A stretch of DNA of 64,000 nt from Bryobacteraceae bacterium. GTDB taxonomy: Bacteria > Acidobacteriota > Terriglobia > Bryobacterales > Bryobacteraceae. The notes below the pieces were generated by a model. That model saw only the letters and a list, made by a program, of their open reading frames with translations, ran no database searches and was not told the origin of the DNA. Every line of letters starts with the position of its first letter. Within the stretch, counting starts at the first letter, position 1. The position numbers and the translations under genes are program-made. The stretch is taken from the NCBI GenBank assembly GCA_049516835.1, contig JBEKSR010000003.1:8302-72301 (forward strand), written 5' to 3'. Below, piece after piece: positions 3,119 to 8,089 of the stretch.

Positions 3119-3339
3119 TCCTTGAGTATAGAGGCAGACACCCCGGGGCCTCTGGCCCCATAGGCGTTAAGTTGAGTTAAGGGGTTGGTGGACCGATTCC
3201 TGGGGGCCGTAGCGGCTGTCGGCCCTTCTAAACCCTACGGGGTCAGGTGAGATTGATCGGTTGACCGTTTGGCCCGTCACATGTCAGCCATGGGCGTTCT
3301 TCGGCCAAGTGTTTTGTCCCACCAATGGAGCCGCTCCCG

Positions 3340-4044
3340 TCAATCCCAGCGTAGGCCCGCTGCTTCAAGGTGTTCTGGCCGAAACTTCAGGACACCGTCG
3401 GCAACGGCCAAAGGAAAAACCTCCGAAGTGATATCACTAAGATCGCCAACTTGAAACGGAAACGCCTCCTGAGCTCCAGGCGCCAATGCAATGCGATACT
3501 CGGATTGGTAAGAAAAGCTCGCCGGCTTTCGGAATCGCCCGACTTCTCCGGAATAGTTCGATTCATCGTAGTACTCAACGAGGCGGCCCTCGACCTTCAG
3601 TCCTCGGTGCTTTGCTGCGGCGGCTACTCTCGAAAGAAACTCCTGCGTATGAGTGAAGAGAACGAAAGACTCGCCAGGCCACTTATGGCATCTTGGAAAG
3701 ATTGGGCCCTCGACTGGCCTCGTTATCGCGAACATGCAGAAGAGATTGCAGAAAGAAGTTTGCTGGCGAGCAATTTTGATTGGACCGGCAAGGTCCCCAG
3801 GCGCGGCCCGGATCTGATCCAGGCCACGGATTCCCGGGTCGAAAACGAGATTGCAGTGCTCTGGCTGAAGGATGTAATCTGTGCCTTCACGTTTGTCGCT
3901 TCGGGCTGGGTCCCCCTCCAGCGACTTGAAAAAAGCCAGAGGGCTCATGTATAGGAGACCTTTCTGGACCATTTCCAGATGGGCCCTACGGCCGAGCTTG
4001 AGCAAGATCACACAGGGCTCGCCCGTTTTAGTCCAGAGGGCCAC
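3340..4044 (-). CDS. Hypothetical protein (orphan, gene D of the AT-richer island)
   Basis: 234-aa ORF with GTG start preceded by AGGA. AT-richer than the flanks. No motif I can name. Its start lies 34 nt from the left end of the IS1-type element. Confidence 0.5.
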   Translation of the reverse strand: MALWTKTGEPCVILLKLGRRAHLEMVQKGLLYMSPLAFFKSLEGDPARSDKREGTDYILQPEHCNLVFDPGIRGLDQIRAAPGDLAGPIKIARQQTSFCNLFCMFAITRPVEGPIFPRCHKWPGESFVLFTHTQEFLSRVAAAAKHRGLKVEGRLVEYYDESNYSGEVGRFRKPASFSYQSEYRIALAPGAQEAFPFQVGDLSDITSEVFPLAVADGVLKFRPEHLEAAGLRWD

Positions 4045-4198
4045 ACTTAATTATCCTCTGCCACACGCCCTGCCGTGGGTGGTGCGCTAAATCTGTGTCC
4101 CTAGCAGTTCTTGCGCCCCCGTTTCGTCAGCCCAATGGTGCGCCAAATGCACGGGGATTGGCCGAAGACGCACGAAGCGAATCGGTCCAAGTAGAAAA

Positions 4199-4777
4199 TC
4201 AGGGATCGTCGGGAGCCCTGGTCGGCAGAAGCATAGATGGATCGAAAACCATTTCACATTGAGGGCACGATAACTCGGCTAAGACCCACCGACTGAGCCA
4301 TCGCAGAAACTGCGCATCGAGCGCTCTCCGGCCCGCGACGTGAAGCGTTGCGATCTTGGGAACACTCCGAATCAGATCTATATCGACCGTCGTCAGTTGA
4401 TTAAGAAAAGCGATACTGTCTTCCAGCTTGGCTCCGTGGCGCGGAAGAAAAAAAAGATGAGCGATACGGTGACGCTTAGCGTCACCCTGCTTTTCTCTAC
4501 TGAGCGTCGATAACGGCCGTACGGGACATACTACAACTCGATTCTGGGCACGTTCAGGATGAGATATCTCGCAGTCGGGGGTGACCACTAGAGATCGCAC
4601 GCTTTGGCACGCCACGGACACCGGTACCTCTTCGTCCTTTGGCAATGCGATCATAGTCTCTACAGTAAGTCCGTGGTTCTGGTTACCGCGCACGTTGATG
4701 TAGACGTGCGGCGCAAACTCCAATAAATCGCCCTGGCTCAGTTGAGCCGCAGGTTCGCAGTAAAAGCTTCCAAGCAA
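4199..4777 (-). CDS. Hypothetical protein (cargo gene C)
   Basis: 192-aa ORF with TTG start 10 nt after the gene B stop. The order of 'QGDLLEF', 'SLVVTPDCEI', 'VVVCPVRPLS' and 'DSIAFLNQLTTVDIDLI' loosely recalls a MazF/PemK-type SH3-like barrel (weak, by eye). C-terminal 'CPQC'. Confidence 0.5.
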   Translation of the reverse strand: MLGSFYCEPAAQLSQGDLLEFAPHVYINVRGNQNHGLTVETMIALPKDEEVPVSVACQSVRSLVVTPDCEISHPERAQNRVVVCPVRPLSTLSREKQGDAKRHRIAHLFFLPRHGAKLEDSIAFLNQLTTVDIDLIRSVPKIATLHVAGRRALDAQFLRWLSRWVLAELSCPQCEMVFDPSMLLPTRAPDDP

Positions 4778-4787
4778 GAATTACCTT

Positions 4788-5168
4788 TTAGAAGAAACAA
4801 CTATCATCTGGCTCGACTTCTTGCTCGGCTTCGGACGGAGGCCTGAAGTAAGCGTCAAAGGCCAGCGACAAACTTTCTCCGGATCGCGCACGCGCGAAGT
4901 CTATCCCAGGTTTGGCGACGCTTTCGGGGGGCCTCGCAGGACTGCGAGGCGGTTTTGGCGCGCGATGGACTACCAAAATCACATCAGACGTGTGATTACT
5001 GAAGGGCAGAATAACAGTTCCTACTGGTGCAATAGCAAAACCGATTATCAACACCGCGGCCGAAAATGGAGATGGTCCTTTTGCGTGTTGGCGAGGGTTC
5101 GTTTGCCGTTCGGTCAGATCCTCTTCCAAAGAGAATACGTCCACTATATCCCACTGCTCATTTTTCAT
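4788..5168 (-). CDS. Hypothetical single-pass membrane protein (cargo gene B)
   Basis: 126 aa. Its ATG overlaps the gene A stop (ATGA). One hydrophobic helix 'FSAAVLIIGFAIAPVGTVILPF', with acidic N- and C-terminal tails. Confidence 0.5.
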   Translation of the reverse strand: MKNEQWDIVDVFSLEEDLTERQTNPRQHAKGPSPFSAAVLIIGFAIAPVGTVILPFSNHTSDVILVVHRAPKPPRSPARPPESVAKPGIDFARARSGESLSLAFDAYFRPPSEAEQEVEPDDSCFF

Positions 5169-5842
5169 GATTGTCTGACCTCTTCTGCGAAATGATGCAA
5201 CCGCTCTGCGTGCGGCTTACACTGCTCTAGAAATTCAAGCATCAGAGCAGTTGGCAGCGCAATCCGTATGATAGGCTCCAGGTATACGTCCGCTCTCCTG
5301 CCTATACGAACGAAGTGGATATCGGGCGGGGCTATGTAATAGAAGTCCATAATGGAGTCATCGCCGATTGCGGCCATGAAAACGTTGTTCGCACGAAAGC
5401 CCTGCACCTTTTCTGTGTCTTGAGGTTCTGGAATCGGTGCCAACCGTTTGGTGCTAAAGTCGTTTTGTAGGCTCTCGTGAAACGCCCTAGAGCTATTCCA
5501 AAGCCCTCGAACAAAAAGTGTTTCTGGATACGATATTTCGACCTTCGTACGAAGTGCCGCGTTGCCGGGTGCCAGCCGACCAAAGACGAGACCAATTCCC
5601 GCTCTCGCCTCAACCACTCTGCAATAGTCGGCAAAGTACCGGCGATCAGGAACCTCCGCACGCTCATAGTCAACACCGAGTTCGATGAATGTTCCTCTTC
5701 CATCTTCAATGAAGCGGAGGCGAACAGGTCCCTTCGATTGGGCGACAGCGCCGCGTCCGGGGGCTACGAATTTTCGTTCGCTAACAGCGTTCATGATTCC
5801 TTCAGATAGAATGCCGACACAAATCCATTTTGAGTATAGCAT
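5165..5842 (-). CDS. Hypothetical protein (cargo gene A)
   Basis: 225-aa ORF from ATG 5842. Alternative ATG 5794 is preceded by GAAGGA. No recognisable motif. About 50% GC in a spot count. Confidence 0.5.
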   Translation of the reverse strand: MLYSKWICVGILSEGIMNAVSERKFVAPGRGAVAQSKGPVRLRFIEDGRGTFIELGVDYERAEVPDRRYFADYCRVVEARAGIGLVFGRLAPGNAALRTKVEISYPETLFVRGLWNSSRAFHESLQNDFSTKRLAPIPEPQDTEKVQGFRANNVFMAAIGDDSIMDFYYIAPPDIHFVRIGRRADVYLEPIIRIALPTALMLEFLEQCKPHAERLHHFAEEVRQS

Positions 5843-5886
5843 ATTTTTCCGCCAGTCATCTACAAGGGAAACTGGTTTAGTATCAA

Positions 5887-6180
5887 TTAGTTAAAGCCTG
5901 CTGGGCGCTCAGGCCTCCTGATCACGCGGTCTCCGGCAGTTCCCGTGGTCCACATGGCCTTCGTGATGCCGACGGCCATCGCGGGCGTCATGCGCAGAGT
6001 CTGGTGGCGGCGGATGGAGTTGTACCAGGCAAAATGAACGCAGTATGCAGCCCACAGGTTGTCCCACTTCTTGCTAAAGGCGCTCATCAGCCGCGTCATG
6101 CGGCCCATCTGCATCCTGATCGTGAGGTTCTGGCGCTCCACATGGGACGTGCAAATCTTCGCGGGATCGGAGATCGCCAC
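5887..6180 (-). pseudogene. IS1-family transposase, C-terminal fragment only
   Basis: 'TSHVERQNLTIRMQMGRMTRLMSAFSKKW...YN..R.H.TL..TPAMA' parallels the InsB C-terminus '[28 protein letters not shown]'. The N-terminal zinc-finger/HTH region and the region that would carry the two catalytic Asp are absent. The ORF begins 3 nt inside the right inverted repeat. Confidence 0.75.
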
Positions 6181-6440
6181 CAGGATAGGGACACATATTT
6201 AGCGCACTACCCTGCCGTGCGGCTCCGGAAATCGCCAGGTGCAGGCGGAGCCCTCTATTCCGCATCTGGTCAGCCGCGATCATCGGCTGTGAGTGCAACA
6301 CCAGAATGCAATTAGTCGGAGGGCCACAGAAGCCATGTGGACGAGAAGTCGCCATCCCGGAGGCTGACCCCGACGTTATCGTTCAACCGCTTTTCTATGC
6401 CTGCCCCCCCAGTCTTCCATTGGCTCTGGAAGCGGCCTTT

Positions 6441-6935
6441 TTAGCCGCCCTGCTGCGGGTGCTTTTTCATCAGCGAATCGAGAAGCGCTTCCGGGATTCT
6501 AAAAGTTGTCCGCCGAAGACGGTTGACCGTCTGAGCAAGGTTAACCAGGCCGCGCTGGGCGGCAAGATCGAGAACCCCCAGCGTGCCAGTCACACGGAGT
6601 CCCTTGCCGCGAGCTACAATTGCGCCCTTCCGATCGTCCATGAGCGGCAGATCGGCGTCGAGCGAAATGGCCAGGGCGATTGCGGCTGCCTCCCCGTTAT
6701 CGAGTTCTTCCACGGAAGCCTGGTCGAATTGACGGCTTGGCGTTTCGTGGACGTCAAGCCAATCCGGAGGATCGGCAATCCAGTTCCGCACCAAAGACGG
6801 AACGTCCGGGTCGGTCAACTCGGCTCGCACGGCGGATGGCAGGATCACTTTCTCAAATAGAACTGGAAGGAGGTCGACGTTTTCGATCAGTACCAGATGG
6901 TCGATCGGCCCGGTATCGGCGATGATGAGCCGCAC
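6441..6935 (-). CDS. DUF3368-type PIN-like toxin
   Basis: 164 aa, 'LIIADTGPIDHLVLIENVDLLPVLF'. It sits directly downstream of a UPF0175 partner, the classic pairing. Confidence 0.7.
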   Translation of the reverse strand: MRLIIADTGPIDHLVLIENVDLLPVLFEKVILPSAVRAELTDPDVPSLVRNWIADPPDWLDVHETPSRQFDQASVEELDNGEAAAIALAISLDADLPLMDDRKGAIVARGKGLRVTGTLGVLDLAAQRGLVNLAQTVNRLRRTTFRIPEALLDSLMKKHPQQGG

Positions 6936-6938
6936 CGG

Positions 6939-7202
6939 TTAGAATCCCAATTGTTTCAGAGCGTCACGATCCCGCTCAAAATCTTCCATGGTGTAGTCTT
7001 CATACACGTCATGGGATTTTAGGAACCCATCGAGCCGGTACCTGGTTCCAAAACCGAGCAGCCGCCGCAGCTCAGGCTTGGTGATGCGACCGCTCTTGAA
7101 TTCTTCGAGCGCCAGGGCTTCGAGGGCGCGGCGCGAGAGGTCGACGCCGGATGCGCTCATGCGACTGGCCAGCTCATCGGGAATCCGGACGGTCAGTTCC
7201 AT
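6939..7202 (-). CDS. UPF0175 family antitoxin
   Basis: 87 aa. 'ALALEEFKSGRITKPELRRLLGF' is typical of UPF0175. There is a 3-nt gap to the DUF3368 gene. Confidence 0.7.
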   Translation of the reverse strand: MELTVRIPDELASRMSASGVDLSRRALEALALEEFKSGRITKPELRRLLGFGTRYRLDGFLKSHDVYEDYTMEDFERDRDALKQLGF

Positions 7203-7306: not shown

Positions 7307-8089
7307 CTAGAACCGTTTCAGCGCGCGCAGCAGGGAGGCGGTGGTGCCGCCGGAATGCAGCTCCACCGAGTGAACGGGTTTCCAATTCTCGTCCATGGTC
7401 CCAATGTAGAGGGCGGCCTGGCGGCTGCCGCCCATCAGGATGACGGTGTACTTGCGGTCCGGGTAGCCGAGGGCGCGGCACTGGAGTTCGCCCGACTCGC
7501 TCTGCCAGCGGTCGGAGGCGGGCCGGCCCAGTTTCTGCACCGCGGCGAGGTAGTCGTCGCGGCTGGTCAGGGTGAGGTACTGCTGGTCCTTAGTGGTGAA
7601 GACCACGCTCTGCCTGACCTCGCCCACTTGGGTCAGGCGGAGGGCCGCCAGGCAGAGGAGAACGGCCACGGGCAGCGCGGCGGCGATCAGCTTGAAGATG
7701 CGGCGGTCGTTGGATTCCAGCCGGATGCCCACCACGGGCGCGGGCGCGCCGCGGTCCGGAACGGCCCCGGATGCCGGAGGAGAGCCGCCCACCGCAACGG
7801 GCATCTGGATCACGCGCCGCTGGTACGGCCACACCGTGCCGCCCTTGTATTCCAGCTCCCGGTTCAAGCCGACTATGAGGACCGGGTCGTCGATGCGCGA
7901 CACTTCACCGACGAGCCGCCGCGAGATCCAGATCTCCGCACCGCTCTTGCAATTGACCACCAGGATCTCCGACCAGGTGGCCTTCCGGAAGAGCCACTCG
8001 TTGTGCTCGATGTTGAGGATGGGGGGATAGAACGAGAATGGCCGGGAGGTCAAGTGGTTGAGCGACGGCGGAATGGGCGGGGAGGCCAT
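7307..8089 (-). CDS. Hypothetical membrane-anchored protein
   Basis: The ORF runs to 8188 but overlaps the upstream gene, so ATG 8089 ('MASPPIPPSLNHL') was chosen. One central TM helix 'IFKLIAAALPVAVLLCLAAL'. Confidence 0.5.
   Translation of the reverse strand: MASPPIPPSLNHLTSRPFSFYPPILNIEHNEWLFRKATWSEILVVNCKSGAEIWISRRLVGEVSRIDDPVLIVGLNRELEYKGGTVWPYQRRVIQMPVAVGGSPPASGAVPDRGAPAPVVGIRLESNDRRIFKLIAAALPVAVLLCLAALRLTQVGEVRQSVVFTTKDQQYLTLTSRDDYLAAVQKLGRPASDRWQSESGELQCRALGYPDRKYTVILMGGSRQAALYIGTMDENWKPVHSVELHSGGTTASLLRALKRF

Follow-up and report, generated by a model that had tools for sequence, protein, structure and literature searches.

A candidate tripartite toxin-antitoxin-like operon carried by a decayed IS1-like element in a Bryobacteraceae bacterium

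What might three adjacent genes of no recognisable family be doing together on a mobile element? The question is raised by genes A, B and C, which lie in a 64,000-nucleotide stretch (the window) of contig JBEKSR010000003.1, assembly GCA_049516835.1, from a Bryobacteraceae bacterium of the phylum Acidobacteriota. A first-pass annotation, made from the sequence alone, had described them as a tightly coupled operon of unrecognisable proteins and as a candidate addiction or defence module. Our analysis suggests that A-B-C is probably a self-contained, horizontally mobile, tripartite toxin-antitoxin-like operon.

A coupled triad on mobile DNA

Open reading frame (ORF) calling agreed with that annotation on the positions of the three genes and on their common direction, which is that of the minus strand (Table 1). 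The stop codon of A overlaps the start codon of B as ATGA, and 10 nt lie between the stop of B and the start of C, both as described; the spacer contains AAGG ahead of the TTG start codon of C. The length of A, put at about 210–225 aa, has to be narrowed to 209 aa. An internal ATG at 5794 is the start in all A homologues and in an identical, NCBI-annotated protein of a metagenome-assembled genome (MAG) (P0011, 209 aa, 'hypothetical protein [Bryobacteraceae bacterium]'), and A is therefore best taken as 5165–5794. Searches of Pfam, NCBIfam, PADLOC and PHROGs returned no match for A, B or C, and for C no Pfam family appeared even at E ≤ 1. The proteins are thus as unrecognisable as they had been called, and A stays without a nameable motif.

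Homologous triads were collected with tblastn and hidden Markov model searches (loci L001–4, L011–16 and L017–27, plus 16 further metagenome loci). Each independent contig that carried any one of A, B and C carried all three in the same order. Their homologues are 28–74% identical and collinear at every independent locus found; identity to A, B and C of the window is 74, 64 and 53% in L017 and 47, 30 and 38% in L018. L004, L012 and L015 show the same 4-nt overlap between A and B. Apart from a prophage and one viral contig, the independent loci lie on chromosomes of Acidobacteriota. The three genes therefore do co-occur, in order and in unrelated neighbourhoods, and the claim of a conserved, translationally coupled triad stands.

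The flanks of nine triads contained 111 Pfam families, each present in at most two loci and most of them housekeeping (GatB, PlsX, IMPDH, SecDF, TatC, UvrC, Ku/LigD). Among 5.8 billion protein clusters, C had 10 close relatives and A had 34, none of them with a Pfam domain or a functional name. A was found in 10 of 185,579 species representatives, all of them MAGs of Bryobacterales or Terriglobia that derive from peat and soil, and C was also present in all ten. This distribution fits a small selfish cassette and not a pathway component.

In the window, A-B-C is the passenger of a decayed, non-autonomous IS1-like insertion sequence (IS). The three genes are enclosed by a 2134-bp element whose terminal inverted repeats of 26–27 nt agree at 24 of 26 positions; the repeat has only these two matches in the 64 kb and none in shuffled sequence. 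Directly outside them stands a perfect 8-bp direct repeat, CTGCCGTG, which is the target-site duplication. IS1 generates target duplications of 8–9 bp. Within the element, the transposase remnant comes first, followed by A, B and C. The matches of the remnant to Pfam DDE_Tnp_IS1 (E 0.005) and NCBIfam transpos_IS1 (E 0.026) are both weak and fall at the C-terminal ends of the models, and neither an N-terminal part of the transposase nor a second copy occurs in the window. Because the transposase is cut down to its C-terminal ~97 aa, the element is non-autonomous.

It shares with the IS1 family, some of whose members carry passengers, terminal repeats of the GGTG(G/A)TGC type, the 8-bp duplication and the DDE_Tnp_IS1-like remnant, and differs in the loss of an intact IS1-type DDE transposase and in the three-gene operon placed between that remnant and the inverted repeat of the other end. 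It was seen in this strain only, and among the fetched loci its inverted repeat turned up solely in those of that strain. The first-pass annotation had treated the genes as mobile-element cargo, and the inverted repeats and target-site duplication demonstrate that context. Its observation that the block is richer in AT than the host was also right: GC is 0.50–0.57 over ~3200–6200 against 0.62–0.71 in the flanks (A-B-C block 52–55%, genome 63–70%).

Other triads sit on phage DNA. L015 and L016 each hold a complete triad on a phage-like contig, between its capsid/head genes and its tail genes; terminase, portal, capsid and tail proteins are encoded there. The position is that of a moron, an extra cassette dispensable for virion assembly. 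A further triad (L027) lies on an IMG/VR viral contig. We also observed a decayed triad in L021, where A is intact, B is split by a ~3-kb insertion with an IS1595-like transposase and other ORFs, and C is frameshifted near residue 150.

The fold of C and the tail of its partner

A structural model of C was built with AlphaFold (AF2) from a 32-sequence alignment (predicted local distance difference test, pLDDT, 88.3; predicted template modelling score, pTM, 0.78). A Foldseek search with this model against the Protein Data Bank (PDB) gave 83 matches at E ≤ 1e-3. The best 50 were all MazF-type toxins (MazF, MoxT, YdcE/EndoA); their lowest E value is 9e-6, the probability is 1.0, and TM scores normalised to the target are 0.57–0.73. 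The model thus gives C the CcdB/MazF SH3-like barrel fold.

Conserved in the C family are QGD, which falls on the first strand, a D/S-C-E/D motif whose Cys is invariant, CP(V/I), FLP and DS, as well as an Arg/Gln-rich C-terminal helix (R150, Q156, R159, R163-W164) and a CPxC motif. We considered a four-cysteine zinc site (C69/C84/C171/C174) and rejected it, as C84 is not conserved across the wider family. Sequence-profile searches of the PDB with the C and A families produced chance matches only (zinc-finger peptides, Med11). A divergent 244-aa variant of C in L023 keeps QGD, TCDI, SPV and FYLP, and in it a zinc-ribbon-like CxxC...CxxC C-terminus replaces the single CPxC.

An exhaustive profile search brought 1059 C-like cluster representatives at 50% identity (E ≤ 1e-3), of which 306 passed E ≤ 1e-10 and 20 passed E ≤ 1e-30. 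Most of these matches span profile positions 3–153, without the CPxC tail. When 113 members were compared with Pfam, PADLOC and NCBIfam, only chance-level matches were obtained, PemK in none of the 113, and the source names of 10 superfamily clusters were all 'hypothetical' or blank. A broader C profile found no C-like gene in IMG/VR. The superfamily to which C belongs is thus of considerable size and without a name, and it has the CcdB/MazF fold.

A type III, ToxIN-like system was rejected as an explanation. ToxN is absent from the best 50 PDB matches of C, all of which are MazF-type, and what lies upstream of C is not an array of RNA repeats but the protein-coding A and B, with no tandem-repeat search made.

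For the wider C superfamily, 80 metagenome loci were fetched. The gene directly upstream of the C-like genes encodes 84 to more than 200 residues and recurrently ends in ...ADT(D/N)..(S/T)...LA.A(F/W)..(I/V)SRP......(L/V)S(V/F)DPDDYP(L/V)(F/V)-COOH. Some clades vary the final DPDDYP[LV][FV]-COOH, for instance to EPDDSCFF or VDFSFG, and the tail of B in the window, ...SLAFDAYFRPPSEAEQEVEPDDSCFF, is such a clade variant.

We then described the tail independently of the motif, as a stretch of 15 last residues with three or more acidic residues, no more than one basic residue and an aromatic within the last 5. Such tails were present in 55 of the 67 upstream partners of non-identical C-like genes, compared with 24 of 2501 other ORFs of the same loci. 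Antitoxins in the PDB end in a similar way, MazE in ...EPKDKEVW and CcdA in ...FADENKDW. The C-terminal regions of MazE and CcdA are their toxin-binding parts.

B itself is acidic (pI, isoelectric point, 5.0). Its orthologues align in a WD(I/V) motif at the N-terminus, a hydrophobic stretch at the same position and a conserved C-terminal tail. The 126-aa length given earlier for B is correct. Its description as a single-pass membrane protein is plausible and uncertain: the mean Kyte-Doolittle hydropathy over 19 residues is 2.3 here and 1.4–2.2 in orthologues, which is borderline for a membrane helix. Judged from the alignments, a variable N-terminus followed by a conserved, toxin-proximal tail is the architecture of a classic type II antitoxin. 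The adjacent, co-oriented and tightly coupled B and C genes also co-occur in the manner of type II toxin-antitoxin (TA) genes.

Several likenesses to MazEF, Kis-Kid/PemIK and CcdAB therefore meet in this locus: C has the same predicted fold, the gene directly upstream of it is that of a partner, with translational coupling, and, as with MazEF and CcdAB, the tail of the partner is acidic with terminal aromatics and the module is found on mobile DNA. The differences are also clear. C is ~70 residues longer, with an insertion after the first strand, the Arg-rich C-terminal helix and CPxC. Neither an AbrB nor a ribbon-helix-helix (RHH) DNA-binding domain is present in B, and here a third gene, A, is obligatory. 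The module would thus function in the manner of MazEF or CcdAB, extended by a third component.

The first gene, a possible mechanism and competing explanations

The AF2 model of A (pLDDT 86, pTM 0.82) consists of two units, each a beta-sheet plus a long helix; an internal repeat is not detectable in its sequence. No PDB structure matched it at E ≤ 1e-3 and nothing was found in BFVD, a viral structure library. The best PDB match was human PURA (PUR-alpha), with E 5e-3, probability up to 0.69, TM 0.2–0.31 and a root-mean-square deviation (rmsd) of ~17 Å. Going by the model, A may have an undescribed fold or be a very divergent PUR/Whirly-like protein. The profile comparisons of A, B and C and the AlphaFold/Foldseek comparisons of A and C, which the first-pass annotation had named as a check, thus assigned none of the three proteins to an ordinary metabolic or structural family.

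In the wider superfamily, the three-gene layout is kept and the family of the first gene varies. A is the first gene in 16 further loci (E 1e-15 to 1e-85). In five others this place is taken by TIGR04255, an uncharacterised NCBIfam family (E 6e-11 to 6e-38), followed by the tailed partner and the C-like protein; in L043 and L098 the TIGR04255 gene overlaps that of the tailed partner by 4 nt. At least two other first-gene families have no library match. Comparison of A, TIGR04255 and the two other families with hhalign revealed no similarity, and the only PADLOC match of the first-gene families was at chance level (GajA, E 0.05). The TIGR04255 profile matched nothing in the PDB, and a literature search for this family found no paper in the library consulted.

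Each first-gene family goes with its own type of B N-terminus, and the B tail and C stay conserved. As the N-terminus of B co-varies with the first gene and the tail is constant, B may be a hub that contacts the first-gene protein through its N-terminus and C through its tail.

Could A instead be a DNA-binding regulator of an ordinary two-component type II system, in which B is the antitoxin, C the toxin and A a dedicated nucleic-acid-binding protein that supplies the DNA binding missing from B? A stands first in the operon like omega in omega-epsilon-zeta and PaaR in paaR-paaA-parE, in both of which the regulator gene comes first and the antitoxin lacks a DNA-binding domain of its own. The only structural matches of A, weak as they are (probability up to 0.69), are to the ssDNA/RNA-binding (ss, single-stranded) repeats of PUR-alpha, and A consists of two sheet-plus-helix units. 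Some short partners of C-like proteins (about 84–111 aa) also have an N-terminus that looks RHH-like by eye (L029, L032, L034, L037, L051; that of L055 differs), with one weak CcdA match (E 0.11), and the B proteins of three-gene loci have no such domain.

Most of what speaks against this concerns A itself. Its match to PUR-alpha, with TM 0.2–0.3 and rmsd above 14 Å, is not significant, and a Pfam search showed no helix-turn-helix, RHH or AbrB signature; A, unlike omega and PaaR, has no recognisable DNA-binding fold. A is moreover better conserved than the toxin C, and most contigs with short partners are too short to rule out a first gene. Four first-gene families without detectable mutual similarity, each co-varying with the N-terminus of B, point to contact with B and not to operator binding. 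We therefore consider an ordinary two-component system unlikely.

For the tripartite operon that we favour, the following mechanism can be proposed. C would be a putative growth-arresting effector, most likely an endoribonuclease with a non-canonical polar set (QGD, D/S-C-E/D, R-P, N-R, ES..D.R and the Arg-rich C-terminal helix) and less likely a stoichiometric poison like CcdB. B would neutralise C in the way known from the C-termini of MazE and CcdA, with its disordered acidic-aromatic tail placed in the substrate groove of C, and its N-terminal part (WDIVD and the hydrophobic segment) would dock on A, on the membrane or on both. A would be obligate as third partner and would control B, whether by stabilising or sensing, like the chaperone of toxin-antitoxin-chaperone (TAC) systems, or by regulation. 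C would be set free when the element is lost or when some insult takes away A or B, and its release would either keep the mobile element stable or make a phage infection abortive. We infer that C is toxic and that the tail neutralises it, and we likewise infer what A does and the link to phages. Growth arrest by C and its neutralisation by B have indirect support in the acidic-aromatic tail of the upstream partners and in the joint decay of B and C in L021.

Several results weigh against this interpretation, and some of them concern C. The first-pass annotation had seen by eye a resemblance of C to MazF/PemK-type toxins. This holds at the level of the fold, and sequence homology is undetectable: C has no PemK (PF02452) or CcdB match, and hhalign aligned the C family with a MazF/Kid/EndoA alignment, whose sequences were checked against the PDB, at a probability of 0.9%, which is not significant. 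The insignificant alignment pairs the same blocks as had been paired by eye. It is approximate, and it places MazF R29 on R61 of C, in a column that is R or K in ~19 of 30 sequences, and MazF T52 on a variable column. The catalytic Arg29/Thr52 positions of MazF are thus not conserved in the C family, and because these columns vary, RNase activity is not backed by known catalytic residues. With a pI of 6.4, C is also not basic.

Other objections concern the partners and the setting. B has neither a Pfam domain nor a recognisable DNA-binding domain, the latter being typical of type II antitoxins, and should its hydrophobic segment be a membrane span that leaves the C-terminus outside, a cytoplasmic C would be out of the tail's reach. 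A is conserved more strongly than either B or C, an unusual feature in an accessory component, and in structure searches it resembles neither SecB-type chaperones nor any known regulator. PADLOC-DB v2 models matched none of A, B, C and the neighbouring gene D. The first-pass annotation had asked about enrichment near defence islands, and the triad is not enriched beside defence genes in the loci examined. The decay in L021 is a single case and comes from a MAG.

Some of these results would also suit a system without any toxin, in which the barrel of C is a non-toxic nucleic-acid- or protein-binding module of a membrane-associated complex, regulatory or structural in function, that B anchors and in which A is a partner. 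The unconserved MazF catalytic positions, the near-neutral pI of C, the positional conservation of the hydrophobic segment in B, the strong conservation of A and the lack of defence-island neighbours are all in line with it. Such a complex would hardly be expected to occur so sporadically (10/185,579 species representatives), to travel as a cassette on an IS and in a prophage, and to have a different neighbourhood each time; nor would it account for upstream partners whose tails mirror MazE and CcdA. In L021, moreover, B and C are both broken. The pattern as a whole is typical of selfish modules and not of housekeeping complexes. In our view, a non-toxic complex is very improbable.

Among known three-part systems, another close comparison is with TAC modules such as the Mycobacterium HigBA-SecB and CmdTAC systems (PMC9098466, PMC11618068). 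They share with A-B-C three co-transcribed genes, an antitoxin extended by a region that plausibly relies on the third component, and an association with mobile or phage-related DNA. In contrast to their chaperone, A is not SecB-like (no SecB is among the best 50 PDB matches listed, and no Pfam match was obtained) and its gene opens the operon instead of closing it; the predicted toxin fold is MazF-like and not that of HigB, MqsR, HicA or an ADP-ribosyltransferase. Because it lacks a SecB-like chaperone and has a different gene order, A-B-C is not a strict TAC system. A literature search for tripartite MazF-like systems yielded general reviews and TAC papers only.

The CmdC chaperone of CmdTAC senses a capsid protein (PMC11618068), and this precedent for a third component as sensor suggests a special case of the TA-like operon, one that serves mainly for abortive infection or superinfection exclusion: A would sense a phage protein, B would be degraded and C would arrest the cell. 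The moron-like triad in the L015/L016 prophage and the triad on the IMG/VR contig agree with such a role, and interchangeable first-gene families are what diversifying sensors would look like. Speaking against it are the lack of a SecB-like fold in A and of any matching PADLOC model (the 113 superfamily members gave only the chance-level matches mentioned above), the failure of the broader C profile to find C-like genes in IMG/VR, neighbours that are housekeeping genes and not defence islands, and a third component that, unlike in TAC systems, is encoded first. A role chiefly in phage defence therefore seems to us rather unlikely.

Surroundings of the operon and wider meaning

The coordinates of the triad, its carrier and related features are collected in Table 1. 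The first-pass annotation had placed the operon among toxin-antitoxin loci. One adjoining locus is indeed there, a conventional pair of a UPF0175 antitoxin and a DUF3368 PIN-like protein immediately upstream of the IS insertion site, and it is the only one.

Gene D (234 aa) lies within the low-GC block, 26 nt beyond the IS target-site duplication, and the IS is inserted just upstream of its start codon. Its single library match is to PHROG 26561, of unknown function (E 2.7e-13), with none in Pfam, NCBIfam or PADLOC. We rejected D as a fourth member of the module: it is absent beside every other triad, lies outside the IS and was found only in contigs of the same strain.

Upstream of A, an extended -10-like box, TGnTATACT or TGATATCAT, was observed in three triads (the window, L017 and L015), whose upstream regions are otherwise unalignable; in L017, the closest orthologue, it reads TGaTATACT. 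A scan for sigma-70 and terminator consensus sequences on the coding strand of A-B-C showed nothing above shuffle expectation, and no tRNA gene or Rfam family was found in the 64-kb window.

Table 1. Positions of the triad, its carrier element and related features (window coordinates unless a locus is named)
Feature	Position	Strand	Description
Gene A	5165–5794 (ORF to 5842, 225 aa)	-	209 aa; most conserved of the triad; alpha/beta; third component; 34 homologue clusters, all without a name
Gene B	4788–5168	-	126 aa, pI 5.0; N-terminal WDIVD; hydrophobic segment ~residues 36–58; tail ...SLAFDAYFRPPSEAEQEVEPDDSCFF; presumed antitoxin/adaptor
Gene C	4199–4777	-	192 aa, TTG start; MazF/CcdB-fold model, basic C-terminal helix, CPxC motif; presumed toxin/effector
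IS1-like element	4078–6211		2134 bp; encloses A-B-C
Target-site duplication, copy 1	4070–4077		CTGCCGTG; same 8-mer directly outside each inverted repeat
Terminal inverted repeat	4078–4103	+	GGTGGTGCGCTAAATCTGTGTCCCTA; repeat search
IS1-like DDE transposase remnant	5887–6180	-	C-terminal ~97 aa only; weak Pfam/NCBIfam matches
Terminal inverted repeat, second copy	6186–6211	-	GGTAGTGCGCTAAATATGTGTCCCTA; repeat search
Target-site duplication, copy 2	6212–6219		CTGCCGTG; identical 8-mer
Candidate extended -10 box for A-B-C	5833–5841	-	TGcTATACT; by-eye reading; overlaps the ATG of the longer A ORF
Extended -10-like box, L017	about 3700–3710		TGaTATACT; upstream of A
Extended -10-like box, L015	about 7890–7900		Upstream of A
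Gene D	3340–4044	-	234 aa; outside the IS
DUF3368 PIN-like protein	6441–6935	-	TA pair with UPF0175 (pair 6441–7202)
UPF0175 antitoxin	6939–7202	-	TA pair with DUF3368
Complete triad, L015	8001–9607		Phage-like contig
Complete triad, L016	7698–9301		Phage-like contig
Decayed triad, L021	10554–14690		B split, C frameshifted
IS1595-like transposase, L021	10830–11786		In the insertion that splits B
Divergent C variant, L023	10992–11726		244 aa; CxxC...CxxC C-terminus
TIGR04255 first genes	L028 2596–3411; L043 603–1301; L044 2589–3458; L063 623–1411; L098 2784–3548		Then tailed partner, then C-like protein

What is new in this locus is a sequence superfamily on a known toxin fold, a signature for the antitoxin tail and a first gene that is exchangeable and comes in part from orphan families, and the question of the first gene is the most novel of these. 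If C is toxic, the superfamily, with its ~1000 clusters, would be a new one on the CcdB/MazF fold, outside Pfam, NCBIfam and PADLOC, and its different conserved polar residues would imply that an old scaffold has acquired a new kind of catalysis or that the target is new. With its conserved acidic-aromatic end, the partner offers a simple sequence signature by which such antitoxins can be found. The window also provides an example, from the little-studied Acidobacteriota, of an IS with a complete TA-like operon as its passenger.

Taken further, A-B-C might be one member of a large unnamed class made of a MazF-fold effector (~1000 clusters at 50% identity), a tailed adaptor-antitoxin and an exchangeable first-gene sensor or stabiliser (A, TIGR04255 and at least two more) that decides on the release of the effector, with A as a fold without a solved relative. 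This extension is tentative, and we regard it as possible rather than probable. The exchangeable first gene ties orphan families, TIGR04255 among them, to modules of the TA type and suggests a division of labour among three parts, a sensor or stabiliser, an adaptor-antitoxin and an effector. If the modular class is real, TIGR04255 would gain its first functional assignment.

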